Shown here: positions 1 through 21,527 of the stretch, in pieces
Numbering within the stretch: the first letter of the stretch is position 1
Layout of the letters: each line of letters begins with the position of its first letter
Source: a candidate division FCPU426 bacterium
Lineage (GTDB): Bacteria > Oederibacteriota > JAAXVQ01 > JAUVAV01
DNA length: 64,000 bases
Assembly: GCA_040756875.1 (NCBI GenBank)
Contig: JBFLYH010000002.1
Span: forward strand, 981,246-1,045,245
Reading direction: 5' to 3'
Notes under the pieces: generated by a model
Databases searched by the model: none
What the model was told of the DNA's origin: nothing
The model's input: only the letters and a program-made list of their open reading frames with translations
Translations under genes and position numbers: made by a program

Positions 1-480
1 CCGCCGGCCAAGGGCGCCACCCAGCTTTCCCGCATCCTGCGCGACATCCTCTACACCGAACCCGGGCAGCCGGGAACGGACTTCAATCCCGCCCTGGAAT
101 ACCTCAACGAAATCATGAAGCGCAAGAGCATCGTGTTCCTCCTGTCGGATTTCCACGCGCCGGACCATGGCCGCGCCCTGGGCGCGACCAACCGCCGCCA
201 CGACGTGATCGCCGTGGAGATCCGCGATCCCGGCGAGGCTGCCCTGCCCGCGGTGCCTTACCTTGCCCTGCAGGATCTGGAGCAGGGCACGAGCCGCCTG
301 GTGCCCGCCGGTTCGGCCGCTTTCCGGCGCGCCTACGAGGAACACCGGCGGCTGCAGGATGAAGCCCGGCGTTCCACCTGGAAGCGCCTGGGCGTGGACC
401 ACATCGAGGTGAGGACCGACCGCTCCTATGTGGAGCCCTTGATCAACTTTTTCCGTATGCGCGCCCGGCGGTTCCACTGA
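1..480 (+). CDS. DUF58-family protein (vWA-like fold), 5'-truncated at window edge
   Basis: Frame 1 is open from nt 1 to stop at 480; C-terminal sequence ...SIVFLLSDFHAP... typical of DUF58 proteins that follow MoxR ATPases in bat operons. Confidence 0.65.
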   Translation, partial: PPAKGATQLSRILRDILYTEPGQPGTDFNPALEYLNEIMKRKSIVFLLSDFHAPDHGRALGATNRRHDVIAVEIRDPGEAALPAVPYLALQDLEQGTSRLVPAGSAAFRRAYEEHRRLQDEARRSTWKRLGVDHIEVRTDRSYVEPLINFFRMRARRFH

Positions 481-502
481 GCCGGCGCGAAGGCAAGGAC
501 CA

Positions 503-1510: not shown

Positions 1511-2486
1511 TCCGTGGTGGCTGCTCCTGCTTCTGCCCGTGGCCGGACTAGCCTGGCTGCTGTGGCTGCGCAGCCGGCGGCCCGAGGGCTTCAAGTACGC
1601 GGAGCTGTCCTCCTGGCGAAAACTGGGCCCAGCGCAGGCCTTCGGCCCCGATGAGGCGATCTTCGCGCTTTTTATTCTCGGTTTGTGCCTGCTGGTCATG
1701 GCCCTGGCCAGGCCCCAAGCCGGCGTGAAAACCGAGGAAGTCACGGGCCGGGGCGTGGACATCATGCTTTGCCTGGACACCTCGGGCTCCATGCGGGCCG
1801 TGGATTTCCAGCCGCAGAACCGGCTGGGTGCGGCCAAGGAAACGGCCATCCAGTTCATCCAGGCCCGGCCGCGCGACCGCCTGGGTCTGGTGGTGTTCGG
1901 CGGCGCAGCCCAGACTGTCTGCCCGCTGACCGCGGACAAAAAGGCGCTGCTGGATTTCATGCGGCAGGTGCGGATCGACATGACCGGCGTGGACGGCACG
2001 GCGCTCGGATCGGCCGTGGCCCTGGCTGCGGACCGGCTGCGTTCCTCGAAAGCGGCCAGCAAGGTGATATTGCTTTTGACCGACGGCCGCAACAACACAG
2101 GGTCGGTTTCGCCGCTGACTGCAGCTAAAGCCGCGGCTGCGCTGGGGATCAAGATTTATGCGGTCGGCGCCGGGTCGCCCGGCGGCGGGCTGATTCCGGT
2201 CCAGGACCCGGTTTTCGGCACGCGCTACGCCCGCATGGAGCAGGACTTGGATGAGGACACATTGCGCGCCCTGGCCGCGGAAACCGGAGGCAGTTATTTC
2301 CGGGCCAAGGACAGCGAGGGACTCAAACGGATTTTCGAGCGCATCAATCACATGGAAAAAAGCGATTACCAGATCAAGGCCTTCACCCATTACCGGGACT
2401 TGTATTTCAACTGGCTGGCCGCTGGCTGGTTGCTGCTGGCCGCGGCCCTGGGTCTGCGTTACGCGGTTTTCAGGCGGTTGCCGTAG
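1497..2486 (+). CDS. batA: BatA-like von Willebrand factor A domain membrane protein
   Basis: Start moved to in-frame ATG at 1497 (MQLANPWWLLLL...); N-terminal TM pair then vWA domain with MIDAS-like DTSGSM. Confidence 0.8.
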   Translation: MQLANPWWLLLLLPVAGLAWLLWLRSRRPEGFKYAELSSWRKLGPAQAFGPDEAIFALFILGLCLLVMALARPQAGVKTEEVTGRGVDIMLCLDTSGSMRAVDFQPQNRLGAAKETAIQFIQARPRDRLGLVVFGGAAQTVCPLTADKKALLDFMRQVRIDMTGVDGTALGSAVALAADRLRSSKAASKVILLLTDGRNNTGSVSPLTAAKAAAALGIKIYAVGAGSPGGGLIPVQDPVFGTRYARMEQDLDEDTLRALAAETGGSYFRAKDSEGLKRIFERINHMEKSDYQIKAFTHYRDLYFNWLAAGWLLLAAALGLRYAVFRRLP

Positions 2487-2488
2487 AG

Positions 2489-2615
2489 AAGGGGGGATGG
2501 CGGCCTTTCACCCGCGGGACGGCGGCCATTGGGTAGGCCGCCTCGGCTTGCGAAAAACGATGCCTACCAGTGTTTTTCGCAAACGCCCGCTGGCGAAAGG
2601 CCGCCATCCCCATGA
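2489..2615. repeat. Palindromic intergenic element E1: 17-bp perfect outer inverted repeat enclosing two internal hairpins
   Basis: Arms GGGGATGGCGGCCTTTC (2493-2509) and GAAAGGCCGCCATCCCC (2595-2611); inner hairpins GGCGGCC/GGCCGCC and GCGAAAAAC/GTTTTTCGC; homologous to the element at 23945-24070. Confidence 0.7.
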
Positions 2616-2642
2616 AGATAAGTTGTAAAACACACTAAGGGA

Positions 2643-4436
<1,794 letters not shown>

Positions 4437-4449
4437 GCAAGAGGACAGC

Positions 4450-6330
4450 ATGAGAAGAGGGATAGCCAGACTGGGGTTGGCGGCAGTGGTTTTGGCCCTG
4501 CCGCATGCCGCCCTGGCCCAGGACATTACCATTCAGGCGGATGTGAATCCCAAGCAGGCGGCGGTCGGTCAGCCGCTGCGCTTGGTGGTCTCCATTTCAG
4601 GCCAAGCCAACCTGCAGGGAGGGCCCCAGCTGCCGGATCTTTCGGATTTTCAGGTCTACAACGGCGGGCAGTCCACCAATTTTTCCTGGGTCAATGGCCA
4701 GGTGTCTTCTTCCCTGAATTATACCTATGTGCTGGTTCCAAAACACTCCGGCCAGTTCACCATCGGTCCGGTGCAAATTACGCATGCAGGCCAGACCTAT
4801 GCCACCCAGCCCATGACTGTGAGCGTGGGAGCGGCAGCCAGTGCGCCGCCTGCGGCCAGCGCACCCCCGGCCGGCGCGCCGCAGGCGGCCAATGCGCCCC
4901 AGGCCAGCGCGCCGCCCATCCAGACCGAGCGCAACCGCGGCGCGGCCTTCGTGACCACCAGCGTGGACCGCAAGCACGTTTATGTCAACGAGCCGGTGAT
5001 CCTTTCCTTCCGCTTCTACACCCGCGTGCCGATTTTATCGCAGCCCCAATACCAGCCGGCGGATACCAACGGCTTCTGGGCCGAGGACCTTCCGCCCCAG
5101 CGCCAATACACTCAGATCGTCAATGGCAACGACTACCGGGTCATTGAAATCCGCACCTTGCTGTTTCCGACCACAGCCGGGTCTCTGACCATCGGCCCGG
5201 CCAAATTGATCGTACAGATGGAAAACTTTCAGCGCCGCATGGCCGATCCCTTTGCCGATGATTTTTTCCGCAACTTTTTCTCCCGCGGACAGACCGCGGA
5301 ACTGCAATCCGAGCCGATTACCGTTCAGGTCAAATCCATCCCCCAGGAGGGGCGGCCGTCCAATTTTACGGGTGCGGTCGGGAAGTGGTCCCTGTCCGCC
5401 AAACTGGACCGCAGGGAAGCCAAAGTCAACGACGCCGTGACCCTGGAGGTGCGCATTTTCGGAGAAGGCAACGTCAAGTCCGTGGGCAAGCTCGAGCTCC
5501 CGCCCCTGACCGGATTCAAGGTGTACGAAACCATTTCATCCTCGGAGGTGCAGAAACAGGGAGACCAGGTGCGCGGCGTCAAGATCTACCGAACCCTGCT
5601 GCGGCCTGAAGTCACGGGCGTGCTCGCGATCCCTGAACTCGCCTACAGCTATTTCGATCCCCAGTCCGGCACGTTCGAGCAAATCCGGGTGCCGAGCCTG
5701 AGCCTCAAGGTGCTGCCCGGCGAGCCGGCGGCGGCCGGGCAGGCCGCAGCCGTGTTCGCGCCCGGCGCGTCGGCTGCGCCGGCGGAAGGCGTGAAGCTGA
5801 TGGCGCAGGACATCCGTTATCTGAAAACCAGCCTGCCGCTCGCGCCCCGGGCCCAGCCCCTGGCCGGGTGGTTCTGGCTGCTTGGCTTCGGGCTTCCGCC
5901 CCTGATGCTGGCCGGCTTATGGAGCTGGCATCGCTGGCAGGACCGGCTGGCGGCTGATCCCCGGTTTGCGCGGCGCCTGAGCGCCGACAAAAGCGCGCGC
6001 CAGGCCCTGCGCCAGGCGCATCGCTCGCGCCAGCGCCGCGACGCCAAGACGTTCTATGCGCAGCTTATTCAGGCGGTCAACGGGTATTTGGCCGACCATC
6101 TCGGCCTCTCCCGCGCGGGCGTCACGCAGCGCGAATTGCTGCAGCTCCTGCGCCAGCGCCGGGCCCAGGAAGCGCTTCTGTCCGGACTGACCCGTTTGTG
6201 GGAGGAATGCGATTACGCCCGCTTTGCACCCGGCGCCTCTGACCCTGCCGCCATGGAAGCGCACGAGCGCCAGGCCGAATCCCTGCTGGCACAATTGGGA
6301 CGGATTCTTTCCCGGGAGACAAAAGCATGA
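4450..6330 (+). CDS. batD: BatD-like oxygen-tolerance protein
   Basis: 626-aa ORF with signal peptide, Ala/Pro-rich linker, C-terminal TM segment and TPR-like tail; position after BatB. Confidence 0.7.
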   Translation: MRRGIARLGLAAVVLALPHAALAQDITIQADVNPKQAAVGQPLRLVVSISGQANLQGGPQLPDLSDFQVYNGGQSTNFSWVNGQVSSSLNYTYVLVPKHSGQFTIGPVQITHAGQTYATQPMTVSVGAAASAPPAASAPPAGAPQAANAPQASAPPIQTERNRGAAFVTTSVDRKHVYVNEPVILSFRFYTRVPILSQPQYQPADTNGFWAEDLPPQRQYTQIVNGNDYRVIEIRTLLFPTTAGSLTIGPAKLIVQMENFQRRMADPFADDFFRNFFSRGQTAELQSEPITVQVKSIPQEGRPSNFTGAVGKWSLSAKLDRREAKVNDAVTLEVRIFGEGNVKSVGKLELPPLTGFKVYETISSSEVQKQGDQVRGVKIYRTLLRPEVTGVLAIPELAYSYFDPQSGTFEQIRVPSLSLKVLPGEPAAAGQAAAVFAPGASAAPAEGVKLMAQDIRYLKTSLPLAPRAQPLAGWFWLLGFGLPPLMLAGLWSWHRWQDRLAADPRFARRLSADKSARQALRQAHRSRQRRDAKTFYAQLIQAVNGYLADHLGLSRAGVTQRELLQLLRQRRAQEALLSGLTRLWEECDYARFAPGASDPAAMEAHERQAESLLAQLGRILSRETKA

Positions 6331-7079
6331 AACCCAGCGCCCTGATCTGTTTGTTGTGGCTGGCGCCGGGCCTGGTTTGGGCCGCGGCTGCGACCGATCC
6401 CGCGGCCGCAGCGCGCGCGGCTTATGACGCCGGCAATTACGTTCAGGCGGCGGAAGAATACCGGGCGCTGGAAGGGCGTGGTTTCGGGAGTGCGGCCCTG
6501 TATTACGACTGGGGCAACGCCGAATACAAGGCCGGGCATCTGGGCCGCGCCATTGCCCTTTACCGCCGGGCCGAGAAGCTTGGGCCGTGGGACGAGGATG
6601 TGCGCTTCAATCTGGATTACGCCCGCAAGCAGGTCAAGCGGCCCGAGGATCCCAACGGCCCGCTCACCCGCTGGTTGTTGTCCGTTTACCGGAGTCTGCC
6701 CGGCCCGACCCTGCTGGCCGCAGCCTGGGCCATCTACCTGCTGTTGTCGGCCCTGGCGGCGGTCTTGATCGTGCGCCGCGGCCAGGGCGCGCTCTGGCGC
6801 TGGCTGGCCCTGGCTGCCACTGGTTTATTCCTGATCGCCGCCGGCTGGGCCTCCCTGCGGCTGCTCGATGAGAAACAGGCTGCCATTGGGGTGATTGTCA
6901 CCAACCAGGCCGAGGCCCGCAACGGCCCGGCCGCGGACTTCGACGTGGGCTTCAAGATTCCCGAAGGCCGTGAAGTGCGCGTCTTGGGGCACGAGGCCGG
7001 CTGGGTGGCCGTGGGCCTGGCGCCCGAGGGGTATAAGGGCTGGGTCAAATCCGAAGATATTTGGGAAGACGGGGAATGA
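6327..7079 (+). CDS. batE: BatE-like TPR/SH3b-domain protein
   Basis: ATGA overlap with batD stop; signal peptide, TPR-like repeats (AAYDAGNYVQAAEEY..), TM, C-terminal SH3b-like segment (GWVAVG..GYKGWVKSEDI). Confidence 0.6.
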   Translation: MKPSALICLLWLAPGLVWAAAATDPAAAARAAYDAGNYVQAAEEYRALEGRGFGSAALYYDWGNAEYKAGHLGRAIALYRRAEKLGPWDEDVRFNLDYARKQVKRPEDPNGPLTRWLLSVYRSLPGPTLLAAAWAIYLLLSALAAVLIVRRGQGALWRWLALAATGLFLIAAGWASLRLLDEKQAAIGVIVTNQAEARNGPAADFDVGFKIPEGREVRVLGHEAGWVAVGLAPEGYKGWVKSEDIWEDGE

Positions 7080-7633: not shown

Positions 7634-7750
7634 TTTTTTCCTGGTTATTTCGTTGTTCGTCTGTCCCGGTTGTCCTTGACAGCTCCCCAGCCGCTGCTAT
7701 AATCTGGGCCAACGCGGTTTTCTCATCAAGGGTCCAAAGGAGTCCTGGCC

Positions 7751-7918
7751 ATGAAAGGCAATTCTGCTTGCGGTGGGTGGTACTTCATCGCCATGATCGG
7801 CGCGGCGGTTTATTTCGTCCAGCAATCCGCCACGTTCTGGGGCGGCGTGCTTGGCGTGTTGAAAGCCCTGGTCTGGCCCGCGTTCCTGATTTATCGCCTA
7901 CTGGTCTACCTCGCGTAA
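7751..7918 (+). CDS. hypothetical small hydrophobic protein (55 aa)
   Basis: ATG at 7751 to TAA at 7916-7918, below the ORF-track length cut-off; two predicted TM helices; intergenic location. Confidence 0.3.
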   Translation: MKGNSACGGWYFIAMIGAAVYFVQQSATFWGGVLGVLKALVWPAFLIYRLLVYLA

Positions 7919-7998: not shown

Positions 7999-8027
7999 TT
8001 GACTTTCCCTGGCGCCTTGCGTATATT
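7999..8027 (+). promoter_or_regulatory. sigma70-like promoter TTGACT-17-TATATT upstream of the TCA cluster
   Basis: -35 at 7999-8004, 17-nt spacer, -10 at 8022-8027; about 70 nt upstream of the RBS (GGAGG ~8085) and ATG 8098. Confidence 0.45.
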
Positions 8028-8097: not shown

Positions 8098-9489
8098 ATG
8101 ATCAAATACGACCACCACCATCACACTCTCAAGCGGGATGAATTCCGCTATCAGCTGCAGGAAGTCAAGGAACCCAATCTGTACCGCGACATCTATACCT
8201 ATGAAATGCCGCCCCTGCTGTGCTTCAACCACCGCATATCGCCTCTGATGCCGGCCGAGGATATTTGGATCACAGACACGACTTTCCGCGACGGGCAGCA
8301 GGCGCTGCCGCCCTTTACGCCGGACCAGATCGTCCACCTCTACGACCTGCTGCACAAACTGTCCGGGCCGCGGGGCCTGATCCGCCAATCCGAGTTCTTT
8401 TTGTATACCGACAAGGACAAGGAAGCAGTGCGGCGCTGTCTGGAGCGCGGCTACGAGTTTCCCGAAGTCACGGGCTGGATCCGCGCCAAGAAGGAAGACC
8501 TCAGCCTGGTCAAGGAAATCGGCATCAAGGAAACGGGCATTTTGACCTCGGCCTCTGACTATCATATTTTCAACAAACTGAAAATGACCCGGCGCCAGGC
8601 CCTGGACAGCTACCTGGAGATCGTACGCGCCGCGCTGGAGATGGGCGTGATTCCGCGCTGCCACTTGGAGGACATCACCCGGGCGGATTTCTACGGCTTC
8701 GTCATCCCCTTTGCCCAGGAGCTCATGAAGCTTTCGCGGGAAGCCGGCGTGCCGGTCAAGATCCGGGCCTGCGACACCCTGGGGTACGGCGTGAGCATTC
8801 CGGGCGTCATGCTGCCGCGCAACGTGAACGGCATCATCTACGGCCTCAAAGAATATGCCGGCGTGCCTTCGGAGCTGATGGAGTGGCACGGCCACAACGA
8901 TTTCTACCGCGCGCTGAGCAATTCCGTGGCCGCCTGGCTGTACGGCTGCTCGGCTGCGAACGGCACCCTGCTCGGCATCGGCGAACGCACGGGCAACACG
9001 GCCATCGAGGCCCTGATCATCGAATACATCGGCCTGCGCGGGGAATTGGCGGGCGTGGATACGTCCGTGATCACCGAGGTGGCCGAGTACTTCGAAAAGG
9101 AACTCAAATACGTCATACCGCACAACCAGCCGCTGGTGGGCAAGAACTTCAACGTCACCCGGGCCGGGATCCATGCGGACGGGCTGATGAAGGACCAGGA
9201 AATCTATAATATCTTCGACACGGAAAAACTGTTAAAGCGGCCGGTGGACATCGGCATCACGGACAAATCCGGCGCGGCCGGCATCGCCTACTGGCTCAAC
9301 GCGCGCCTCAAGATCCCCGAGGCGCACAAAGTGCAAAAGAACGATCCGGGCGTCATAGCCATCAAGGATTGGGTGGACCTGGAATATAAAAACGGGCGCA
9401 TTACCGGCATTTCCGACGAGGAAATGTGGGAACAGGCCCGCATCCACTTTTCCGAGTGGGTGGGTTACGCCCAGAATGACAGGCGGTAG
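8098..9489 (+). CDS. Re-citrate synthase-like enzyme (homocitrate synthase / 2-isopropylmalate synthase family, DRE-TIM metallolyase)
   Basis: Start moved to ATG 8098 (good RBS); motifs ITDTTFRDGQQ and EWHGHNDF; lies directly upstream of icd and aconitase. Confidence 0.6.
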   Translation: MIKYDHHHHTLKRDEFRYQLQEVKEPNLYRDIYTYEMPPLLCFNHRISPLMPAEDIWITDTTFRDGQQALPPFTPDQIVHLYDLLHKLSGPRGLIRQSEFFLYTDKDKEAVRRCLERGYEFPEVTGWIRAKKEDLSLVKEIGIKETGILTSASDYHIFNKLKMTRRQALDSYLEIVRAALEMGVIPRCHLEDITRADFYGFVIPFAQELMKLSREAGVPVKIRACDTLGYGVSIPGVMLPRNVNGIIYGLKEYAGVPSELMEWHGHNDFYRALSNSVAAWLYGCSAANGTLLGIGERTGNTAIEALIIEYIGLRGELAGVDTSVITEVAEYFEKELKYVIPHNQPLVGKNFNVTRAGIHADGLMKDQEIYNIFDTEKLLKRPVDIGITDKSGAAGIAYWLNARLKIPEAHKVQKNDPGVIAIKDWVDLEYKNGRITGISDEEMWEQARIHFSEWVGYAQNDRR

Positions 9490-9495
9490 CGTCCC

Positions 9496-10743
9496 ATGTC
9501 CAAGCTGACGTACACCCCGCCTGCCTCCGGCGAAACGATCGCCTGGCAGGACGGGCGCCTGCAGGTGCCGGACCGGCCCATCGTCGCTTTCGTCGAGGGC
9601 GACGGCATCGGCCCGGACATCTGGCGCGCCAGCCGGCAGGTGCTGGACGCGGCCGTGGAAGCCGTATACCAGGGCCGGCGGCGGATCCACTGGCTGGAAG
9701 TACTGTGCGGCGAGAAAGCCGTGGCCGCCGGCCATTCCGCGCTGCCCGAGGAAACCCTGGAAGCCATCCGCCGCTACCGCGTGGCCATCAAGGGGCCGCT
9801 GACCACTCCGGTCGGAGGCGGGTTCCGTTCCCTCAACGTCAGCCTGCGCCAGCTGCTCGACCTCTACGCCTGCGTGCGGCCGGTGCGTTACTACGCCGGC
9901 ACCCCGGCGCCGGTGAAACAGCCCGAAAAACTCGACGTGGTGATCTTCCGCGAGAACACCGAGGACGTGTACGCCGGCCTCGAATGGCCCAGCAACAGCC
10001 CCGAGGCGCGCAAGCTCGCGGCCTTTGTCACCGCTGAGCTCAAGCAGCCCGTGGCCGGGGACGCGGGCCTGGGCTTGAAGCCCATGACCCGCGCCAACAC
10101 CCAGCGCCTGGTGCGGGCCGCGATACAATTCGCCCTGGACCACGGCCGGCCTTCGGTCACCCTGGTGCACAAGGGCAACATCATGAAATACACCGAAGGC
10201 GCGTTCCGCGACTGGGGCTACGAAGTGGCGGCCGCGGAATTCGCCGGCCGCGCGGTGACGGAAAAAGACCTGGCCGAAAAACACGGCGGCAAAGCCCCGG
10301 CCGGCTGCGTGGTGATCAAGGACCGGATCGCGGACGCCATGTTCCAGCAGGTGCTGCTGCGGCCGGACGAATACTCGGTGCTCGCCACGCCCAACCTCAA
10401 CGGCGATTACCTCTCCGACGCCTGCGCCGCCCAGGTGGGCGGCCTGGGCATGGCCCCGGGCGCGAATCTCGGCGACGGCCTGGCCGTGTTCGAAGCCACG
10501 CACGGCACGGCGCCCAAGTACGCGGGCCAGGACAAAGTCAACCCCGGTTCGCTGATCCTTTCCGGCGTCATGCTGTTGGAGCATTTGGGGTGGGTGGAGG
10601 CGGCCCGCGCGATTCAACAGGCGCTGGAGCGCACGATCCTCTCGGGCGTGGTAACCTATGATCTGGCCCGGCAGATGCCCAAAAGCCGCGAGGTCAAGTG
10701 CAGCGCCTTTGCGGCCGAGATCGTTTCCCATTTGTCCGCCTGA
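9496..10743 (+). CDS. icd: isocitrate dehydrogenase (NADP-dependent)
   Basis: 415-aa ORF with typical IDH N-terminus and conserved blocks (NLNGDYLSD). Confidence 0.85.
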
Positions 10744-10848
10744 CCACCGCCCCCTCCCCGTTCCGGGAAAAACAGCAAAACCATCCTCCCTTCGCCCCGT
10801 TGGATACCGGCGGAAGACGTCCTTACCAGCCTATCCGTAAAAAGGTTT

Positions 10849-10882
10849 GTTCGGATTCGGATTTGCCCTTCCGAATCCGAAC
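10849..10882. repeat. 13-bp perfect inverted repeat (hairpin) in the icd-mdh intergenic region
   Basis: GTTCGGATTCGGA (10849-10861), 8-nt loop, TCCGAATCCGAAC (10870-10882); flanked by an imperfect outer IR (10801-10813 / 10921-10935). Confidence 0.6.
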
Positions 10883-11023
10883 ATGGAATGCCAGAGGCCT
10901 TAAGGCGGATTCCGACGGTATCCTGCGGAGCGGTGAATGGGCTTTGTTGTTCGAATCTGGTTTTTTTTAGAAAGTATGTTAAGATAGCCCCGGAATTTAT
11001 TCGTTCCTCCGAAGGAGCTCCTT

Positions 11024-11977
11024 ATGGCACGTCGAAAAATCACGGTCATCGGCGCGGGCAACGTGGGCGCGAGCGTGGCGCAGCAGGTGCTGGCCCAGCA
11101 CCTGGGGGACGTGGTGCTGGTGGACGTGCAGGAAGACCTGGCCCAGGGTAAAGCCCTGGATTTGTCGCAGGCCGGCGCGATCCTGGGATATACCGGCAGC
11201 TGCGTGGGCACGGGCAAATACGAAGAGACCATCGATTCCGACGTCATCGTCGTGACCTCGGGTTCGCCGCGCAAGCCGGGCATGAGCCGCGACGACCTGC
11301 TGAAAATCAACTGCGAAATTGTGCACACCGTGGTCGGCCACGCGGCCGCCGCCTCGCCGGACGCCGTGCTGGTGGTGGTGACCAATCCGCTCGACGCCAT
11401 GACCTATGCCGCCCTGAAGGCTTCGGGGTTTCCGGCGCGGCGCGTAACCGGCATGGCCGGGATTCTGGACACGGCCCGCTACCGTTTTTTCCTGTCCCTG
11501 GCGCTGGGCGTGTCGCCGGAGAACGTGGAGGCCATGGTCCTGGGCGGGCACGGCGATGAAATGGTGCCGTGCGTGCCCCTGACCCGCGTGGGCGGTTCGC
11601 CGGTCGCGGACTGGCTGCCTGCCGAGGAGCTGGAGCGGCTGGTGGCCCGGACCCGCGCCGGCGGCGCTGAAATCGTCCAGTTGCTGAAAAGCGGCAGCGC
11701 CTATTACGCGCCGGCCGCGGCCGCGGTGCGGATGGTGGGCGCGATCCTGCGCGACGAGCAGGCGCTCCTGCCCTGCGCCGCCTGGCTGGAGGGGGAATAC
11801 GGACTGCGCGACGTCATGGTGGGCGTGCCCGTGGTCCTGGGGCGCGCGGGCATCCTGAGAATTCCGGAACTCAAGCTCGCAGCCGAAGACCTGGCCGCGC
11901 TCCGGCGTTCCGCCGAGGCGGTGCGCGAGCTGATGCGCCAGGTGGATGAGTGGTGCCTGGGGAACCTGCCCAAATGA
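11024..11977 (+). CDS. mdh: malate dehydrogenase (LDH-like MDH family)
   Basis: N-terminal Rossmann motif ITVIGAGNVGAS; 317 aa. Confidence 0.85.
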   Translation: MARRKITVIGAGNVGASVAQQVLAQHLGDVVLVDVQEDLAQGKALDLSQAGAILGYTGSCVGTGKYEETIDSDVIVVTSGSPRKPGMSRDDLLKINCEIVHTVVGHAAAASPDAVLVVVTNPLDAMTYAALKASGFPARRVTGMAGILDTARYRFFLSLALGVSPENVEAMVLGGHGDEMVPCVPLTRVGGSPVADWLPAEELERLVARTRAGGAEIVQLLKSGSAYYAPAAAAVRMVGAILRDEQALLPCAAWLEGEYGLRDVMVGVPVVLGRAGILRIPELKLAAEDLAALRRSAEAVRELMRQVDEWCLGNLPK

Positions 11978-12081
11978 CGCGGGAGCGGGCGGGCGAAAGC
12001 GGAAAATAGGGAACAGACCGCCGTTCGGGTTGCCGGAGGGTCCGGCGCCGGTTCCGGAGTGGCCAAGAGAGGGGTGGGCGC

Positions 12082-12924
12082 ATGCGGGAAATCACCGTTG
12101 AATCCGTGCAGAAGGCCGTGGTCACGGCCTTGAAAGAGCTCCATTACCAGTTGCGGCCCGATTTACGGACGCGCATCCAATCCGCGATCGAACAGGAAGC
12201 GTCGCCCCTGGGACGTCAGTCCCTGGAGCTGCTTCTGGACAACGCCAAAATGGCTTCGGCCGGCGTGCAGCCCTTGTGCCAGGACACGGGGCTGACCACG
12301 ATCTTCGTGGAACTGGGGCAGGAAGTGCAAATCACCGGGGGCTCCCTCGAAGCCGCGCTGCAGGAAGGCGTGCGCCAGGGGTCCGCGGAACTGCGCCTGC
12401 GGCACTCCGTGGCCGGGCATCCCCTGAAGCGCGTCAACACCGGTGACAACACGCCGGCGTTTATTCATTACGAGATCGTGCCGGGCAAAGGCTGCAAGCT
12501 GCGGGTGCTGGCCAAGGGCGGCGGCAGCGAGAATATGAGCGCCCTGGCCATGCTGCTGCCTTCGGCCGGCATGGAAGGCGTCACGGATTTCGTGCTCAAC
12601 CATGTCCGCCTGCACGGCGCCATGGCCTGCCCGCCCCTGATTGTCGGCGTGGGCGTGGGCGGCAGCTTCGAGACCGCGCCGCTGCTGGCCAAAAAAGCGC
12701 TGCTGCGCCCGGTGGGCCAGCCCTCGTCCGATCCGGAGACCGCGGCGTGGGAGGATAAGTTGCTCGGCTGGATCAACCGCCTGGGCATTGGCCCGCAGGG
12801 GTGGGGCGGCACGACCACCGCCCTGGCCGTGGCCATCGAGACCGCGCCCTGCCACATCGCGTCCCTGCCCGCGGCCGTGAACATCGAATGCCACAGCCAC
12901 CGCATGGCGGAGGTGATGCTATGA
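12082..12924 (+). CDS. fumarate hydratase class I (Fe-S hydro-lyase), alpha/N-terminal catalytic subunit
   Basis: 280-aa ORF with cysteine motifs typical of the two-subunit class I fumarase/tartrate dehydratase family. Confidence 0.75.
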   Translation: MREITVESVQKAVVTALKELHYQLRPDLRTRIQSAIEQEASPLGRQSLELLLDNAKMASAGVQPLCQDTGLTTIFVELGQEVQITGGSLEAALQEGVRQGSAELRLRHSVAGHPLKRVNTGDNTPAFIHYEIVPGKGCKLRVLAKGGGSENMSALAMLLPSAGMEGVTDFVLNHVRLHGAMACPPLIVGVGVGGSFETAPLLAKKALLRPVGQPSSDPETAAWEDKLLGWINRLGIGPQGWGGTTTALAVAIETAPCHIASLPAAVNIECHSHRMAEVML

Positions 12925-13481
12925 GCGGCAAATGGTTGCAGTTGCCCCTGGATCCCAAGGCGGTGGAAGAGCTGGCCGTGGGCCAGTGGGTGAATTTGTC
13001 CGGGCCGCTCATCACGGCGCGCGACGCGGCCTTGAAGCGCATCTATAACCTGCTGCTGGAATACAAAAAGCCGCCGGTGGACCTGCAAAACCAGCTGGTG
13101 TATTTCGTCGGCCCCACGCCCGCGGCGCCGGGCGAGCAGATCGGTTCCGCCGGGCCCACCACCAGCCGCCGCATGGAGCCGTACCTTCCCTCCCTGTTGT
13201 CGGCCGGCGTCAAAGCCGTCATGGGGAAGGGTCCGCTGTCCGAGGGCATGGTCGCCGAGTTCCACCGGCGCGGCGCGATCTATCTGGCCGCGGCCGGCGG
13301 CGCGGGCGCGTACTACGGCTCCAAAGTGCGCGGCGCCATGGTCATGGCCTACGAAGAACTGGGGCCCGAAGCCGTCTACAGCCTGATGGTGGACAATTTT
13401 CCGGCGGTCGTGGCCATTGACCTCAAGGGCGGCAATCTGTTCGAGCAGGGGCCGAAAGCCTATTTCAGGGAGCAAGCATGA
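12921..13481 (+). CDS. fumarate hydratase class I, beta subunit
   Basis: ATGA-coupled to the alpha subunit; 186 aa beginning MSGKWLQLPL. Confidence 0.75.
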   Translation: MSGKWLQLPLDPKAVEELAVGQWVNLSGPLITARDAALKRIYNLLLEYKKPPVDLQNQLVYFVGPTPAAPGEQIGSAGPTTSRRMEPYLPSLLSAGVKAVMGKGPLSEGMVAEFHRRGAIYLAAAGGAGAYYGSKVRGAMVMAYEELGPEAVYSLMVDNFPAVVAIDLKGGNLFEQGPKAYFREQA

Positions 13482-15436
13482 AGCGAAAGACCGTCTCCAG
13501 CCGCGCGCCGCTGACCGCGGCTGAAAAAATCCTGGCCGCCCACGGCATGGCCGCGGGGAGCCGGCCCGGCGATGAAATCGCCCTGCGCATTGACCAGACC
13601 CTGACCCAGGACGCGACCGGTACCCTGGCCTGGCTGCAGTTCGAGGCGCTGGGCCTGCCGCGGGTCAAGACCCGCCTGTCGGTTTCCTACGTGGACCACA
13701 ATACCCTGCAAACCGGATTCGAGAACGCCGACGACCACGCCTATCTGCAGAGCGCCGCCCGAAAATTCGGCGCGGTGTTTTCGCGGCCCGGCAACGGCAT
13801 CTGCCACCAGGTGCACCTGGAACGGTTCGGCAAGCCCTGGGCCACGCTGCTCGGCTCGGATTCCCACACGCCCACGGCCGGCGGCCTGGGCTCGCTTGCC
13901 ATCGGCGCGGGCGGGCTGGATGTGGCCGCGGCCATGGCCGGCGCGCCGTTCTACCTGCTCCATCCGAAGATCCTCAACGTGCTGCTCACCGGCCGGCTGG
14001 CCAGGCGCGTTTCGGCCAAGGACGTGATATTGGAAGTGCTGCGCCGGATTTCCGTCAAGGGCGGGGTGGGCAAGATCCTCGAATACTCCGGTCCGGGCGC
14101 GGCCTCGCTCTCCGTGCCCGAACGGGCCACGATCACGAACATGGGCGCCGAGACCGGCGCCACCACCAGCCTGTTTCCCGCGGACGCCACCACCCGCGCT
14201 TTTCTGGCTTACCAGGGCCGGGCCAGGGAGTACCGGCCTTTGGCCGCGGACCCGGGCGCGGTTTATTCCGGCGGCGAGCTGGCGATCGACCTGTCGCGCC
14301 TGGAGCCGCTGGCCGCCAAACCCCACTCGCCGGACGCGGTCGTGCCGGTCCGCGAGCTGGCCGGGCTCAAACCCCAGCAGGTGGTCATCGGCTCCTGCAC
14401 CAACTCCTCCCTGGCCGACCTGGCGACCGTGGCCGGGCTGCTGGCCGGCCGGCGCGTCCACCCCGACGTGTCGCTGGTGATCACGCCCGGCTCCCAGCAG
14501 GTGCTCAACGCCCTGGCGGAGAACGGCGCGCTCGCGGCCCTGATCACGGCCGGCGCGCGGGTCATGGAGCCCGCCTGCGGCGCCTGCATCGGCATGGGCC
14601 AGGCGCCGGCCACGGGCGCGGTGACCCTGCGCACCTTCAATCGCAATTTCAAGGGCCGGTCCGGCACGCCGGACGCCCAGGTGTACCTGGTTTCAGCCGA
14701 GACCGCGGCCGCGGCCGCGGTCATGGGATCGGTCGTGGATCCGCGCCGCTTTCAGGCCGCCAAGACCTTCCGCCTGCCGAAACGCGCCGAGGCCTCGGAC
14801 AGCCTGCTCATCCGCCCCGCGGCCCGGAAGCAGGCGGTTGAGATCGTGCGGGGGCCCAACATCAAGCCCCTGCCGCAGTTCGCGCCGCTCGCGGACGCGG
14901 ACCAGGGCCAGGTCCTGGCCAAGTTCGGGGACCACGTGACCACGGACGACATCATGCCCGCGGGCGCCAAGCTTCTGCCCCTGCGCTCCAACATCCCGGC
15001 CCTGGCGCAGCACGTCTTCTCGCGTCTGGACGCGGACTTCAGCCGACGCAGCCAGGAGCAGGGGGGCGGCTACGTGGTGGGTGGCGACAACTACGGCCAG
15101 GGCTCCTCGCGGGAGCACGCGGCCCTGGCGCCGCGCTACCTCGGCGTGCGCGCCGTGCTGGTCAAGTCCTTCGCGCGCATCCACCTGGCCAACCTCATCA
15201 ATTTCGGCATCGTGCCCCTGACCTTCCGCGATCCGGCGGATTACGGCCGGGTGGAGGCCGGGCACACGCTGAGCCTGCCGGACCTCAAGGCCGACCTCGC
15301 GGCCGGCCGGGCCGTGCGCGTGAAAAACCTCACCACGGGCGCGGCCTGGGAGATGGAGTGCACCCTGACGCCCCGCCAGCGCGAGCTGGTGCTGGCGGGC
15401 GGGACGCTCAATTATCTGAAACGGCATTTTGCCTGA
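13478..15436 (+). CDS. aconitate hydratase (aconitase family)
   Basis: ATGA-coupled; 652 aa with aconitase blocks (GSDSHT, GSCTNSS, swivel domain). Confidence 0.8.
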   Translation: MKRKTVSSRAPLTAAEKILAAHGMAAGSRPGDEIALRIDQTLTQDATGTLAWLQFEALGLPRVKTRLSVSYVDHNTLQTGFENADDHAYLQSAARKFGAVFSRPGNGICHQVHLERFGKPWATLLGSDSHTPTAGGLGSLAIGAGGLDVAAAMAGAPFYLLHPKILNVLLTGRLARRVSAKDVILEVLRRISVKGGVGKILEYSGPGAASLSVPERATITNMGAETGATTSLFPADATTRAFLAYQGRAREYRPLAADPGAVYSGGELAIDLSRLEPLAAKPHSPDAVVPVRELAGLKPQQVVIGSCTNSSLADLATVAGLLAGRRVHPDVSLVITPGSQQVLNALAENGALAALITAGARVMEPACGACIGMGQAPATGAVTLRTFNRNFKGRSGTPDAQVYLVSAETAAAAAVMGSVVDPRRFQAAKTFRLPKRAEASDSLLIRPAARKQAVEIVRGPNIKPLPQFAPLADADQGQVLAKFGDHVTTDDIMPAGAKLLPLRSNIPALAQHVFSRLDADFSRRSQEQGGGYVVGGDNYGQGSSREHAALAPRYLGVRAVLVKSFARIHLANLINFGIVPLTFRDPADYGRVEAGHTLSLPDLKADLAAGRAVRVKNLTTGAAWEMECTLTPRQRELVLAGGTLNYLKRHFA

Positions 15437-15458: not shown

Positions 15459-15998
15459 ATGCGCCAATGGATCGTCCTGGGCACGGCGGCGCTGCTGCTG
15501 GCCGGCGGCTGCGCCAGCGTGCCCGAAATCAAAGGAAAGGAAGCGAAGACCGAAACCATGACCGAAAGCACACCTGCCACCGAAGCTGTTATTCAGACCA
15601 ACAAAGGCGAGATCGTGTTCAAGTTCTACCCTGAAGACGCACCCAAGACCGTGGAGAATTTCGTCAAGCTGGCGCGCAAGGGCTTTTACGACGGGCTGAC
15701 TTTCCACCGCGTGGTGCCGAACTTCGTCATCCAGGGCGGAGATCCCAAGGGCGACGGCACCGGCGGGCCCGGTTACACCGTTCCCGCGGAATTCAACAGC
15801 CGCTCGCACCTGACGGGCACGGTGGCCATGGCGCGGGCCTTGGATCCCAACTCCGCGGGCAGCCAGTTCTACATCTGCCTCGCCCGTCAGCCCGGCCTCG
15901 ACGGACAGTACACGGTCTTCGGCCAGGTCACCTCGGGCATGGACGTGGTGCAATCGATCCGCGTGGGCGACAAAATGCTCAAGGTCACGGTGCGCTGA
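15459..15998 (+). CDS. peptidyl-prolyl cis-trans isomerase, cyclophilin type (probable lipoprotein)
   Basis: Start at ATG 15459 after RBS AGGAGG; signal peptide with lipobox-like LAGGC; cyclophilin motifs FHRVVPNFVIQGGD. Confidence 0.8.
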   Translation: MRQWIVLGTAALLLAGGCASVPEIKGKEAKTETMTESTPATEAVIQTNKGEIVFKFYPEDAPKTVENFVKLARKGFYDGLTFHRVVPNFVIQGGDPKGDGTGGPGYTVPAEFNSRSHLTGTVAMARALDPNSAGSQFYICLARQPGLDGQYTVFGQVTSGMDVVQSIRVGDKMLKVTVR

Positions 15999-16102: not shown

Positions 16103-16153
16103 ATGGCGGTGAAGAAGGCGAAGAAAAAGGCCACGAAGAAGAAAAAGAAATAA
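16103..16153 (+). CDS. 16-codon lysine-rich micro-ORF (MAVKKAKKKATKKKKK)
   Basis: Strong SD AAAGGAGGTGA 5-8 nt upstream of ATG 16103; stop TAA 16151-16153; followed by an intrinsic terminator. Confidence 0.3.
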   Translation: MAVKKAKKKATKKKKK

Positions 16154-16194
16154 GTTGATTCGATTTCGTGTGCATTGATACGCTTTGGTTTGCG

Positions 16195-16229
16195 AACCGG
16201 AGGGGGCCCTGCTCCCTCCGGTTTTTTAT
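16195..16229 (+). terminator. Rho-independent terminator (GC stem + T6)
   Basis: CCGGAGGGGG / CCCTCCGG stem then TTTTTTATT at 16221-16229. Confidence 0.7.
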
Positions 16230-16344: not shown

Positions 16345-17930
<1,586 letters not shown>

Positions 17931-17947
<17 letters not shown>

Positions 17948-19244
17948 AGGCGGACGCTTGCTCGACCCGGCCAGCCGGCACGACGCGCCGGCGGACCTAT
18001 GGCTGGAAAACGGACGCGTGGCGGAGGTCACTCCGCCGGGCGCCCGCAAACCCCAGGCGCAGGACGAGGTCTGGGAGGCCGGCGGCCTGGCCGTGGCGCC
18101 CGGGCTGGTGGACGCGCACGTGCACCTGCGCGAGCCGGGCGCGGAATACAAGGAAACCATCGCCTCGGGCACGCGCGCAGCCGCCGCGGGCGGCGTGACG
18201 AGCCTAGCCTGCATGCCCAACACCACCCCGCCCATCGACAATCTGGCCATGGTGGAGCTGGTGCTGTCCAAAGCCAAAAGCCAGGGCGCGGTGAACGTCT
18301 TTCCCGTGGCCTGCATCACCCAGCGCCGGGAAGGGAAGCAGCTCACCGAAATGGGCGAACTCAAGGCCGCGGGCGTGGTGGCCGTGTCCGACGACGGCGA
18401 GCCCGTGGAATCGCCGACGCTCATGCGCAGCGCCCTGCAGTACGCCGGCATGCTCGACCTGCTGGTCATCAACCACGCGGAAGACAAGTCCCTCGCCGGC
18501 AAGGGCGTGGCCCACGCCGGGTTCATGGCCTGCAAGCTGGGCCTGGCGGGCGTGCCCCGCTCGGCCCTGGAGGTCATGATCAGCCGCGACCTGCTTCTGG
18601 CCGAGGAGACGGGCAGCCGCATCCACATCCCGCACGTGTCCACGGCCGGGGCCGTGCGCCTGATCCGCGAAGCCAAGGCGCGCGGCGTGCGCGTGACGGC
18701 CGAGACCGCTCCCCACTACCTCGCGCTCACGGACGAGTGCCTCGCGGGCTACGACACCAACGTGCGCGTCAACCCGCCGATCGCCGAGGCCGCGGACCAG
18801 GCGGCGCTTATCGACGGGCTGGTCGACGGCACCCTGGACGCGATCGCCACGGACCATGCCCCGCACTCGCGCCGCGAAAAGGAAATGGAGTTCGCCCTGG
18901 CCGCGCCGGGCATCTGCGGCCTGGAAACTTCGCTCTCCCTCTGTCTCACGGTCCTCGTGGCCTCGGGCCGGATGCCGCTGCTCGAATTGATCGACCGCAT
19001 GTCGCTGCGGCCGGCCCGCCTGCTGGGCGTGCCCAAGGGCACGCTCGCGGCCGGAGCGGACGCGGACCTGGTGCTGTTCGACCCGGACGCGGACCGCACG
19101 GTCCAGGCGTCGGAGTTCCACAGCCAGTCGGACAACACGCCCTTCGACCAGTGGCGCGTGAAAGGCCGCGTGGCCGCCACCTTCGTGGCCGGAGAACCGG
19201 TGTATATCGCTCCTCAAGACCAAGCCAGGCGGAAGCCATCGTGA
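17931..19244 (+). CDS. pyrC: dihydroorotase
   Basis: Start at ATG 17931 (RBS AGGAGG); metal ligands [10 protein letters not shown] and DHAPH. Confidence 0.85.
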
Positions 19245-20005
19245 ACTGCCGCGTGCTGCGCGTCCGGCGGGCGGGTTCCTATGCCCGCCTTTGGCTGGAG
19301 GCGCCGGACATCGCCCGCCGGGCCCGGCCCGGGCAGTTCGTCATGGTCCGGCCCCGGGGCGCGGACGCGCCGTTTTGGCGCCGGCCGTTTTCCCTGTGCT
19401 CGGCCGACGGCCGGCGCAGCGTGGAACTGCTGATCAAAGCCGTGGGTCCGGGCTCCCGCCTGCTCGCCGCCTCGCGTCCGGGGGACCTCCTCGACGTCAC
19501 GGGCCCCTTGGGCACGGGGTTCAGCCTGGACGTCACGGGGCCTGTGCTCCTGGTGGGCGGAGGCTTCGGCATCGCGCCTCTGCGATTTTTAGCCGAGTGC
19601 CTGCGCCGCCGCCGCATTCCCTGCGAGGTGTTCCTGGGCGGTCGATGCCGCGAAGATCTGCTGCTGCAAAGCGAGCTTAAACTCGCGGCCGCGGGCGTGG
19701 CCTGCACCACCGAAGACGGCAGTTTTGGCCGGCGCGGCCGCGTGACCTTGCTTCTGGCCGAGCGCCTGGCCGGCAGCCGGAAACCGGCGCGCATCGCGGC
19801 CGCCGGGCCCGAAGCCATGCTCGCGGTCGTGGCGGACCTGGCGGAAAAGCACGGCGTGGCAGCCGAAGTTTCGCTGGAGACGGTCATGGCCTGCGGCCTG
19901 GGCGTGTGCAACGGCTGCGTGCGCCGCGTCAACGGGCAATACCAGCGCGTGTGCGCCGACGGCCCGGTCTTCGACGCCGCGGCCGTGGATTGGAGCCAAG
20001 CATGA
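19241..20005 (+). CDS. pyrK: dihydroorotate dehydrogenase electron-transfer subunit
   Basis: GTG start overlapping pyrC stop (GTGA); FAD/NAD-binding fold and C-terminal Cys cluster CGLGVCNGC. Confidence 0.75.
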   Translation: MNCRVLRVRRAGSYARLWLEAPDIARRARPGQFVMVRPRGADAPFWRRPFSLCSADGRRSVELLIKAVGPGSRLLAASRPGDLLDVTGPLGTGFSLDVTGPVLLVGGGFGIAPLRFLAECLRRRRIPCEVFLGGRCREDLLLQSELKLAAAGVACTTEDGSFGRRGRVTLLLAERLAGSRKPARIAAAGPEAMLAVVADLAEKHGVAAEVSLETVMACGLGVCNGCVRRVNGQYQRVCADGPVFDAAAVDWSQA

Positions 20006-20931
20006 GCCCGCGTGCCGCAGCACCTTCCCTGTCCTGCACGGTGGGCCGCGTGCGCCTGGCCGCGCCGGTCCTGCTCGCTTCTGGCACCTGCGGCTACGGC
20101 CTGGAGCTGGCCGGGCACGTGGATTTCCCGGCTCTGGGCGGCGTGGTCCTGAAAAGCCTGACCCAGGAGCCGCGCGCTGGCAATCCCATGCCCCGCGTGG
20201 CCGAATGCAGCCAGGGCATGCTCAATGCGATCGGCCTGGCCAATGTGGGCGTGGAGGCGTTTTGCCGCGAGAAGTGGCCCAAGGTCAAAGCGTTGCCTTG
20301 CGCCGTGCTGGCCAACGTGGCTGGCGCTTCGCAGGCCGAGTACGTGGCCGTGGCGCGGCGCCTGGACCGGCTGGACGGGCTCGCGGGCCTGGAGCTGAAC
20401 GTGTCCTGCCCCAATGTCAGCCACGGCGGGATGGAATTCGGCCGCGAGCCCCGCGTGCTGGAACGGCTGGTGGCCGCGGTGCGCAAAGCGACGAAGCGTC
20501 CGCTGTGGGTGAAGCTCACGCCCAACGTGGCGGACATCGCGCCCCTGGCCCGGGCGGCCGAAGCCGCAGGCGCGGACGCAATCACGGTCATCAACACCCT
20601 GCGCGGCCTGCGCATGGACCTCAAGCAACAGCGGCCTGTGCTGGGCAATGTGACGGGCGGGCTCTCGGGCCCGGCCATCATGCCCGTGGCCCTTTTTCAC
20701 GTCTACCGCGCGGCCGGAGCGGTGAAGATCCCCGTGGTGGGCTGCGGCGGCATCGAGACCGCGGAGGACGCGCTCGAATTCATCCTGGCCGGCGCCAGCG
20801 CGGTGCAGGTCGGGACCGCGACCTTCCGCCGGCCGCGGGCCGCGGAGCTGATCGCGGCCGGGCTGCGGCGCCAGCTGCAGGCCCGGGGCCTGCGCAGCCT
20901 CAAGCCCCTGATCGGAGCCGGAAGGATATGA
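20002..20931 (+). CDS. pyrD: dihydroorotate dehydrogenase catalytic subunit (class 1B)
   Basis: ATGA-coupled; TIM-barrel DHODH motifs (NAIGLANVG, LELNVSCPN, GGI). Confidence 0.85.
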   Translation: MSPRAAAPSLSCTVGRVRLAAPVLLASGTCGYGLELAGHVDFPALGGVVLKSLTQEPRAGNPMPRVAECSQGMLNAIGLANVGVEAFCREKWPKVKALPCAVLANVAGASQAEYVAVARRLDRLDGLAGLELNVSCPNVSHGGMEFGREPRVLERLVAAVRKATKRPLWVKLTPNVADIAPLARAAEAAGADAITVINTLRGLRMDLKQQRPVLGNVTGGLSGPAIMPVALFHVYRAAGAVKIPVVGCGGIETAEDALEFILAGASAVQVGTATFRRPRAAELIAAGLRRQLQARGLRSLKPLIGAGRI

Positions 20932-21527
20932 ACTGGCAGGCAGCGGTGATCCAGGCGGTGTCGTGGGACGCGGCCGGGCTCCGCCTGATCAACCAGGGCG
21001 CCTATTGGCGTCCGCTCGCGGATCTGACTTACTGGGTGGCGCGCGACCAGGTCATTCTGGGCGTGCTCGGCGGCGCGGTCGCGGCCTACATCCTGTACGC
21101 GGGCCTGCGCCGCGCGTTGTGGGTGTCCGCCTGGAGCGCCGCGGCCGTAATGCTCACGCAATTGATCCACAACAGCTGGTTCAAGCTTTTTTTCAACCGC
21201 CCCCGGCCGTTTCTCCGCCAGGAGGGCGTGCGGCTGTGCGTGGCTTTGAACGATTTATCGCAGGTTTCGCTGTCCTTCCCGTCCACTCATTCGGCCAGCG
21301 CCGCGGCCCTGGCCGTGGTAATCGCCGGTTTGGATCCGGCGCTCAAGTGGCCGGCCATCGGGTTCGCCCTGCTGATCGGCCTGGGCACCGTGTATTCCGG
21401 CGGGCATTATCCGGCGGACGTGCTCGCGGGGTATGCGGCCGGTGGCGGCGTGGGCTGGCTGTTGCTGCGTCTACGGCCGTTCCTGTCCTGGGCGGACCCT
21501 TGCAGCGCAGGCCAGGGCAGGCCATGA
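20928..21527 (+). CDS. PAP2-family phosphatase (membrane)
   Basis: ATGA-coupled to pyrD; PAP2 motifs SFPSTHS and SGGHYPADV; multiple TM helices. Confidence 0.7.
   Translation: MNWQAAVIQAVSWDAAGLRLINQGAYWRPLADLTYWVARDQVILGVLGGAVAAYILYAGLRRALWVSAWSAAAVMLTQLIHNSWFKLFFNRPRPFLRQEGVRLCVALNDLSQVSLSFPSTHSASAAALAVVIAGLDPALKWPAIGFALLIGLGTVYSGGHYPADVLAGYAAGGGVGWLLLRLRPFLSWADPCSAGQGRP

Follow-up and report, generated by a model that had tools for sequence, protein, structure and literature searches.

A probable Re-citrate synthase gene in a conserved cluster of tricarboxylic acid cycle genes from a candidate division FCPU426 bacterium

Results

A six-gene cluster headed by a probable Re-citrate synthase gene

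A cluster of tricarboxylic acid (TCA) cycle genes was analysed in a 64-kb stretch of DNA from a candidate division FCPU426 bacterium (contig JBFLYH010000002.1). This whole stretch is referred to as the window, and its numbering is used for all coordinates; its GC content is approximately 64%, dropping to 37-47% across the final 8 kb. Six open reading frames (ORFs) were located nearly end to end between positions 8098 and 15436, all on the forward (+) strand. The first of them, gene 1, very probably encodes a Re-citrate synthase (Re-CS; EC 2.3.3.3) of the clade that includes the enzymes of Clostridium kluyveri, Syntrophus aciditrophicus and Clostridium acetobutylicum, a reading drawn from sequence comparison that we regard as the best explanation of the locus as a whole.

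Gene 1 (8098-9489, +) encodes a product of 463 amino acids (aa), and its ATG start codon is preceded by the Shine-Dalgarno sequence GAAGGAGG. It is followed after 6 nt by a gene for an NADP-dependent isocitrate dehydrogenase (IDH) of the homodimeric prokaryotic type (9496-10743, +; 415 aa; TIGR00183, 625 bits against a cut-off of 567) and then by a gene for a malate dehydrogenase (MDH) of the lactate dehydrogenase-like family (11024-11977, +; 317 aa; TIGR01763, 399 against 352), the SPRKPGMSRDDL motif of which holds the substrate-defining Arg. The remaining genes encode the alpha subunit (FumA; 12082-12924, +; 280 aa; NF004885, 361 against 276) and beta subunit (FumB; 12921-13481, +; 186 aa; TIGR00723, 155 against 145) of a class I, iron-sulphur (Fe-S) fumarase and an aconitase (Acn) of the PRK07229 'Aquifex' type (13478-15436, +; 652 aa; NF005558, 909 against 612). 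The curated NCBIfam cut-offs were passed by all five proteins encoded downstream of gene 1; for FumB this applied to the domain model only, the equivalog model scoring 189.5 against a cut-off of 238. Pfam was concordant for all six genes, and the coordinates and families of the predicted six-gene cluster with a split class I fumarase were confirmed. The last three genes had also been predicted to be translationally coupled; in agreement, 4-bp ATGA stop/start overlaps were read from the sequence at both the alpha/beta (12921-12924) and the beta/aconitase (13478-13481) junctions.

Gene 1 resembles the clostridial-type Re-citrate synthases

The product of gene 1 was compared by BLASTP with reference sequences from Table S1 of PMC12016533, which were machine-read from the PDF with dropped letters, errors that can reduce the identities but not raise them. 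Matches spanning nearly the whole protein showed 57% identity to SYN_02536 of S. aciditrophicus, 56% to CKL_0973 of C. kluyveri and 54% to CA_C0970 of C. acetobutylicum, all three being purified Re-CS enzymes, and 62% to the Re-CS candidate of Clostridium thermocellum. Identity with the second Re-CS clade (Dehalococcoides, Thermoanaerobacter, Heliomicrobium and C. difficile) was 27-30%. The phylogenetic placement suggested as a check by the original prediction was carried out as a neighbour-joining (NJ) tree of 25 sequences and 438 columns with 300 bootstraps. Gene 1, its database homologues and the four clostridial-type Re-CS proteins were separated from all other sequences in 300 of the 300 replicates, which places gene 1 within the clostridial Re-CS clade. 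Membership of the Dehalococcoides/Heliomicrobium clade was rejected because the identity is low, the motifs differ and the tree places gene 1 elsewhere.

The alignment revealed a set of clade hallmarks that gene 1 has in common with CKL_0973 and SYN_02536. There is an N-terminal extension of approximately 55 residues (EPNLYRDI...), and TTFRDGQQ, in which the Asp is a metal ligand, replaces TTLRDGEQ. These are accompanied by a GIIRQxEFFLY segment, a 6-residue insertion ahead of LPR, the sequence PRCHLEDITRADFYGF with its 5-residue insertion (the form in the clade being PRCHxEDITRADFYGF) and EWHGHNDF, in which the His-x-His metal ligands are retained. Finally, NVTRAGIHADG stands at the position occupied by AHESGIH in LeuA, NifV and the second Re-CS clade; we infer that the Arg of this loop may help to bind the additional carboxylate group of oxaloacetate.

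Thousands of homologues of approximately 460 aa, 60-92% identical to gene 1, were retrieved from a set of 5.8 billion proteins. Their hosts include FCPU426, Firestonebacteria, Elusimicrobia/Endomicrobia, Omnitrophota, Brocadiales and Thermodesulfobacteriota. Sample SRR29635779 also yielded a 5.8-kb contig that encodes an identical protein. Re-CS genes are known to cluster with aconitase and/or IDH genes, and the same association was observed in the window, where the IDH gene lies directly downstream of gene 1 and the aconitase gene lies within the cluster, and in loci from Bacillota and Omnitrophota.

Gene 1 is distinct from the LeuA, NifV and CimA families

Most homologues of gene 1 are named '2-isopropylmalate synthase' by NCBI, although several JGI records carry the name 'citrate (Re)-synthase'. 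It might therefore be argued from the NCBI names that gene 1 encodes a 2-isopropylmalate synthase, or a homocitrate or citramalate synthase, that serves Leu, Lys or Ile biosynthesis or FeMo-cofactor formation, and that its TCA cycle neighbours are incidental. The families do have much in common. The only domain found in gene 1 was PF00682 (HMGL-like; 1.2e-28), which assigns it to the HMGL-like/DRE-TIM superfamily and not to the Si-citrate synthase (Si-CS) fold; the DRE-TIM fold and the metal/substrate site formed by Arg-Asp and His-x-His are common to gene 1, LeuA, NifV/Lys20 and CimA, as is a Claisen condensation of acetyl-CoA with a 2-oxo acid. The top NCBIfam matches of gene 1 were the NifV, archaeal LEU1 and LeuA models, and its nearest relatives in the PDB were homocitrate, isopropylmalate and citramalate synthases (E = 1e-23 to 1e-18).

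The scores of these matches argue strongly against membership of any of the families. The top matches reached approximately 141-145 bits against curated cut-offs of 463-517, and across all of the models considered a best score of approximately 145 bits compares with cut-offs of 413-950. LeuA was rejected (141-144 bits against 485-748 for LeuA-type models), and the LeuA_dimer regulatory domain (PF08502) was not matched. NifV/LysS (TIGR02660, 144.9 against 462.9; TIGR02146, 99.5 against 413.6) and CimA (TIGR00977, 51.8 against 450; NF042433, 70.2 against 950) were rejected likewise. Identity to NifV, LeuA and CimA was 25-27%, compared with 54-62% to the Re-CS proteins, and ranged from 20 to 27% when LeuA, NifV and CimA were considered as known systems; these enzymes also differ from gene 1 in the catalytic-loop motif, which is VTRAGIH in gene 1 as in the proven Re-CS, and in an amino acid biosynthesis or nif context in place of the TCA cycle genes found here. 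Genes of the leu, lys, ilv or nif type were not found in the 64-kb window, and the linkage of gene 1 to IDH, aconitase and MDH genes is kept across phyla. Because of the low scores, the lack of LeuA_dimer and the remote structural relatives, gene 1 is regarded as a distant paralogue of the LeuA, NifV and CimA families rather than a member, and a role as one of these synthases is considered highly improbable. With 54-62% as opposed to 25-30% identity, the clade motifs and insertions and the scores below cut-off, the predicted choice of a Re-type citrate synthase over LeuA, NifV or CimA was upheld.

The gene order is conserved in an FCPU426-like clade

GTDB species representatives were covered by a genome scan, after which the six enzymes were searched for with tblastn in 88 loci. 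The order ReCS-IDH-MDH-FumA-FumB-Acn was present in every locus that had a Re-CS at least 78% identical to gene 1 and enough downstream DNA (loci L002-L004, L006, L008-L014, L016, L017 and L020, from approximately 12 species-level genomes). Since the same order recurs in all of these loci, the arrangement is not due to chance. Most of the syntenic genomes are labelled candidate division FCPU426, with a few under the names Firestonebacteria, Goldiibacteriota or 'uncultured bacterium'. The closest locus was L009 (CAZVUO010000001.1, a contig of 1.19 Mb), in which the Re-CS was 92% identical and the other enzymes were 82-88% identical to their counterparts in the window.

The arrangement differed in loci where the Re-CS was 60-69% identical. 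In Omnitrophota the order was Acn-MDH-ReCS, with an aconitase 37% identical to that of the window. Bacillota loci had ReCS-Acn (aconitase 57% identical), at times with a 32%-identical IDH, which is the known clostridial citABC-type order (cf. PMC6115520). In L005, from Endomicrobiales, the Re-CS gene was divergent from glutamate synthase genes. The gene arrangements compared here indicate that the five-enzyme cluster is a lineage-specific consolidation of known parts in the FCPU426-like clade.

The cluster is probably transcribed as two adjacent units

The original prediction described the cluster as led by the Re-CS gene. The gene set and order were borne out; the single operon that this wording implies was not, and two units, ReCS-IDH and MDH-FumA-FumB-Acn, are probable because of conserved promoters and a terminator-like gap between the IDH and MDH genes. 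A promoter-like site, TTGACT-17-TATATT (7999-8027, +), lies directly 5' of the Re-CS gene; its TTGAC and GTATAnT elements were invariant in four genomes, and the rest of the spacer had diverged. A second site upstream, TTGACA-16-TATAAT with a TG extension (7676-7703, +), matches the sigma-70-type promoter at 12 of 12 positions and precedes a small ORF that is described below.

The IDH-MDH spacer (10744-11023; 280 nt) folds at -109 kcal/mol, with a z-score of -5.9 relative to shuffled controls. It contains a stem-loop region (10770-10969, +) with a perfect 14-bp hairpin (10848-10883) and a T8 run (10961-10968). The T-run was conserved in L009, where the proteins compared were 86-92% identical to those of the window; the hairpin sequence was not, and the L009 spacer was only marginally stable (z = -2.0). 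A conserved structured RNA was consequently rejected as an explanation of the spacer. No second copy of the 14-bp palindrome was present within the window, and searches of the entire 64 kb with Rfam (gathering threshold) and for tRNA genes gave no match, with no riboswitch or known RNA tied to the cluster. The hairpin and T-run are probably a terminator or processing element that closes the ReCS-IDH unit. After the T-run comes an extended -10 element, the sequence of which (AAAGTATGTTAAGATAnCCCCG) is identical in the window and L009 and similar in L008. This element, TGTTAAGAT (10977-10985, +), lies upstream of the MDH gene and is the probable promoter of the second unit, from MDH onwards.

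It could alternatively be proposed that the six genes form one operon and a single co-regulated TCA module, as they share one strand, are closely spaced and keep a conserved order, and no strong canonical terminator was scored on the + strand before position 16194. That proposal appears unlikely when the IDH-MDH gap is considered: in related loci it varies greatly, from 174 to 650 bp, and it holds an extra ORF of 84-87 aa in L002 and L006; in the window the unusually stable hairpin is followed by the T8 run, and the TGTTAAGAT element ahead of MDH is conserved in the window, L009 and L008. Two adjacent transcription units therefore remain the favoured arrangement. The first strong intrinsic terminator 3' of the cluster (16194-16224, +) has a 14-bp stem with 9 GC pairs and a T-run, and is located beyond a gene for a cyclophilin-type peptidyl-prolyl isomerase (PPIase), which probably belongs to the second unit.

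Discussion

A bifurcated pathway is a plausible role of the locus

The locus would consist of ReCS-IDH, possibly with the small ORF in front, and MDH-FumA-FumB-Acn, probably with the PPIase gene behind, the last three TCA cycle genes being translationally coupled. The Re-CS, as a divalent-metal-dependent DRE-TIM Claisen enzyme, would convert acetyl-CoA and oxaloacetate to citrate, from which aconitase and the NADP-dependent IDH would form 2-oxoglutarate in an oxidative arm feeding glutamate and NADPH. A second arm, joining oxaloacetate, malate and fumarate, would be made up of MDH and the class I fumarase, an oxygen-labile enzyme of two subunits. It is plausible that flux runs in these directions and that the pathway is bifurcated (a 'horseshoe') rather than a complete cycle. 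Succinate dehydrogenase (SDH) and 2-oxoglutarate dehydrogenase (OGDH) had been noted as absent from the cluster, and this was corroborated, as no TCA cycle gene beyond the cluster was found anywhere in the 64-kb window.

An alternative also considered is that the locus belongs to a full TCA cycle, running oxidatively or in reverse to fix CO2, with the missing steps encoded elsewhere. The window is small relative to a genome of several Mb, so absence from it says little, and there are precedents in other bacteria: the Re-CS candidate of Kuenenia stuttgartiensis adjoins succinate-CoA ligase (PMC8027424), and Heliomicrobium modesticaldum, whose Re-CS falls in the other clade, uses the oxidative TCA direction to oxidise acetate and has 2-ketoglutarate:ferredoxin oxidoreductase (KFOR), succinyl-CoA synthetase (SCS) and fumarate reductase (FR) (PMC12016533). 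Against this, no genes for 2-oxoglutarate:ferredoxin oxidoreductase (OFOR) or OGDH, succinyl-CoA synthetase, or fumarate reductase (FRD) or SDH were linked to the cluster within 10 kb on either side in the approximately 12 syntenic genomes. Furthermore, bifurcated or incomplete pathways are usual for this Re-CS clade, and the studied carriers mostly run them, as in C. acetobutylicum and C. thermocellum (PMC12016533, PMC6115520) and Kuenenia (PMC8027424). A complete cycle is accordingly a possibility of some weight that we nevertheless consider doubtful. The strictest version of the bifurcated pathway is quite improbable: it would make the 7.7-kb locus the entire TCA complement, with Re-CS as the sole citrate synthase of a minimal anabolic pathway, no SDH, OGDH, OFOR or Si-CS genome-wide, and the 55-aa product of the small ORF as a functional partner with, for instance, a regulatory or localising role.

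Several points weigh against the reading of the locus as a Re-CS gene within a bifurcated pathway. The Re-face stereospecificity, metal dependence and oxygen sensitivity of the gene 1 product would all be carried over from proteins of approximately 55% identity. The reference sequences were machine-read with errors, and the NJ tree had few outgroups. The IDH is of the E. coli-like NADP type, while the C. acetobutylicum enzyme is NADH-dependent (PMC4669385). Finally, SDH/FRD, OFOR/OGDH, succinyl-CoA synthetase or Si-CS may be encoded elsewhere in the genome. For Si-CS this would not be decisive against the Re-CS, since the two types are found together in C. kluyveri and in C. thermocellum (PMC6115520).

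Comparison with known Re-CS systems

Li and colleagues reportedly described the C. kluyveri Re-CS in 2007 (J Bacteriol 189:4299), together with its oxygen sensitivity and its dependence on Mn2+ or Co2+, and Kim and colleagues are said to have described the SYN_02536 Re-CS of S. aciditrophicus in 2013 (J Bacteriol 195:1689). Gene 1 resembles these two proteins in its extended N-terminus, its insertions, its metal ligands and the NVTRAGIHADG motif; it differs in coming from an uncultured, FCPU426-like bacterium of approximately 65% GC. A C-terminal extension of approximately 190 aa that is present in SYN_02536 is lacking in gene 1. CKL_0973 and SYN_02536 have been described as 'known and isolated' Re-CS (PMC12016533).

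In C. acetobutylicum, the Re-CS, aconitase and NADH-dependent IDH encoded by citA-citB-citC (CA_C0970, CA_C0971 and CA_C0972) have been purified individually (PMC4669385). As in the window, the Re-CS gene is clustered there with aconitase and IDH genes of an oxidative arm to 2-oxoglutarate, and the aconitase beside Re-CS in Bacillota clusters is the one approximately 57% identical to that of the window. The window differs in its gene order (ReCS-IDH, then MDH-FumA-FumB-Acn), in the inclusion of MDH and fumarase and in its probable organisation as two transcription units. Because the IDH is of a different type, the Bacillota enzyme being approximately 32% identical to the E. coli-like NADP type (TIGR00183) of the window and NADH-dependent in C. 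acetobutylicum, the cluster is not simply a clostridial citABC.

The second Re-CS clade (CAI83711, HM1_2993, C. difficile AksA and Teth514_0415; PMC12016533) catalyses the same reaction and belongs to the same HMGL-like superfamily. Its members are without the N-terminal extension and the insertions, and keep the LeuA/NifV-like TTLRDGEQ and AHESGIH motifs. The Brocadiales homologues belong to the same Re-CS clade as gene 1 and are 62-66% identical to it. One of them is 55% identical to CKL_0973, and 13C tracing, which ties it to an oxidative, bifurcated TCA pathway, led to the proposal that K. stuttgartiensis KSMBR1_RS10820 and its Brocadiales homologues are the missing citrate synthase of that pathway (PMC8027424). 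The Brocadiales differ from the window in that the Re-CS gene is solitary or approximately 7 kb from fumAB, with no five-enzyme cluster, and in Kuenenia it has the succinate-CoA ligase neighbour mentioned above.

Two features of Re-CS genes in other lineages were observed in addition. SYN_02536 and certain homologues from the databases (P0022 and P0023; 602-605 aa) have an additional C-terminal domain of approximately 150-190 aa, which gene 1 lacks. A gene for a dCache sensor histidine kinase comes directly after Re-CS in Endomicrobiales (L005, 11394-13217; L007, 11576-13291). Either the kinase neighbour or the extra domain may connect Re-CS with ligand sensing or regulation in those lineages.

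Significance

Much of what the locus contains is already known: knowledge of Re-CS dates back to 2007, and both the clustering of its gene with those for aconitase and IDH and its occurrence in 'dark-matter' phyla and anammox bacteria have been reported. No new enzyme, pathway or mechanism is revealed. Modestly new are the presence of Re-CS in an FCPU426-like bacterium, from a phylum with almost no published genomics; the gene order, which adds MDH and fumarase and in which an E. coli-type NADP-IDH replaces the clostridial NADH enzyme; and the conserved gene for a small membrane protein upstream of Re-CS. The analysis corrects a lasting mis-annotation, since the '2-isopropylmalate synthase' label that NCBI attaches to Re-CS proteins makes the genomes of FCPU426, Omnitrophota, Elusimicrobia and Brocadiales appear to be without a citrate synthase and skews metabolic reconstructions. 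It also provides a first handle on the central carbon metabolism of a barely studied candidate phylum.

Neighbouring genes and other features of the window

The small ORF upstream of gene 1 (7751-7918, +) encodes a 55-aa predicted membrane protein with two transmembrane segments and no Pfam match. In 13 related loci a version of 55-56 aa precedes the Re-CS gene, with 51-81% identity, 51-55% in one of the comparisons, and 18 invariant residues; the ORF is kept even where the context farther upstream differs (L002, 9724-9891; L006, 9638-9808; L008, 9657-9827; L009, approximately 9641). Its tie to the TCA cluster is positional only.

The PPIase gene (15459-15998, +), the product of which has a lipoprotein-like N-terminus, begins 22 nt after the aconitase gene and is probably co-transcribed with the cluster in the window. 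It was rejected as a general member of the cluster. Adjacency to the aconitase gene is limited to the window, L009 and L008/L020, and the distance is 3-5 kb in L011, L012, L016 and L017; other genes intervene between it and the cluster in L002, L011 and L012. Between the PPIase gene and the 16194-16224 terminator there is a tiny lysine-rich ORF, MAVKKAKKKATKKKKK (16103-16153, +), with a strong Shine-Dalgarno sequence. The position of this ORF is kept in five relatives (L009, 17858; L008/L020, 17949; L011, 21026; L012, 20978), and its AKKK repeats vary, giving lengths of 16-36 aa.

Upstream of the cluster, positions 1-7079 (+) are occupied by a Bat/MoxR-type aerotolerance operon that encodes DUF58, BatA, BatB with a long poly-Gln tract, BatD and TPR-SH3 proteins. 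An anaerobic or microaerophilic lifestyle is suggested, because the predicted oxygen-sensitive Re-CS and the Fe-S fumarase adjoin this operon. Downstream, a nearly complete pyrimidine operon (16450-23942, +) comprises pyrR, pyrB, pyrC, pyrK, pyrD, genes for a PAP2 phosphatase and a polysaccharide deacetylase, pyrF and pyrE. The upstream Bat operon and the downstream PPIase-pyrR-pyrB-pyrC genes are also syntenic in L006 and L008.

The region 27369-50878 is a dense block of genes for very large membrane glycosyltransferase-like proteins (PMT_2, DUF2298 and TMEM260-like), two of which have a C-terminal PA14 domain. Genes for three NHL-repeat beta-propeller proteins, together with polysaccharide genes for a flippase, GT2, GT4 and methyltransferases, are interleaved in the same block. 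It is followed by a giant ORF of 2259 aa (51157-57936, +) with a signal-peptide-like N-terminus and no Pfam match; the long middle part of its product is Q/A/L-rich and probably coiled-coil, and the C-terminal segment carries a lipase-like AHSQGT motif.

Gene calls in the window were made with a codon-usage model trained on the TCA cluster. The GC content drops within the 3' end of the giant ORF, and in the region from approximately 56000 to 64000 it falls from approximately 64% to 37-47%. The ORFs of this region (57933-58433, 58300-59364, 59457-60050, 60149-60982 and 60992-62887) have foreign codon usage and gave no family match where tested. This region is probably a horizontally acquired island, and possibly represents a toxin C-terminus followed by an immunity-like cassette after the giant ORF.

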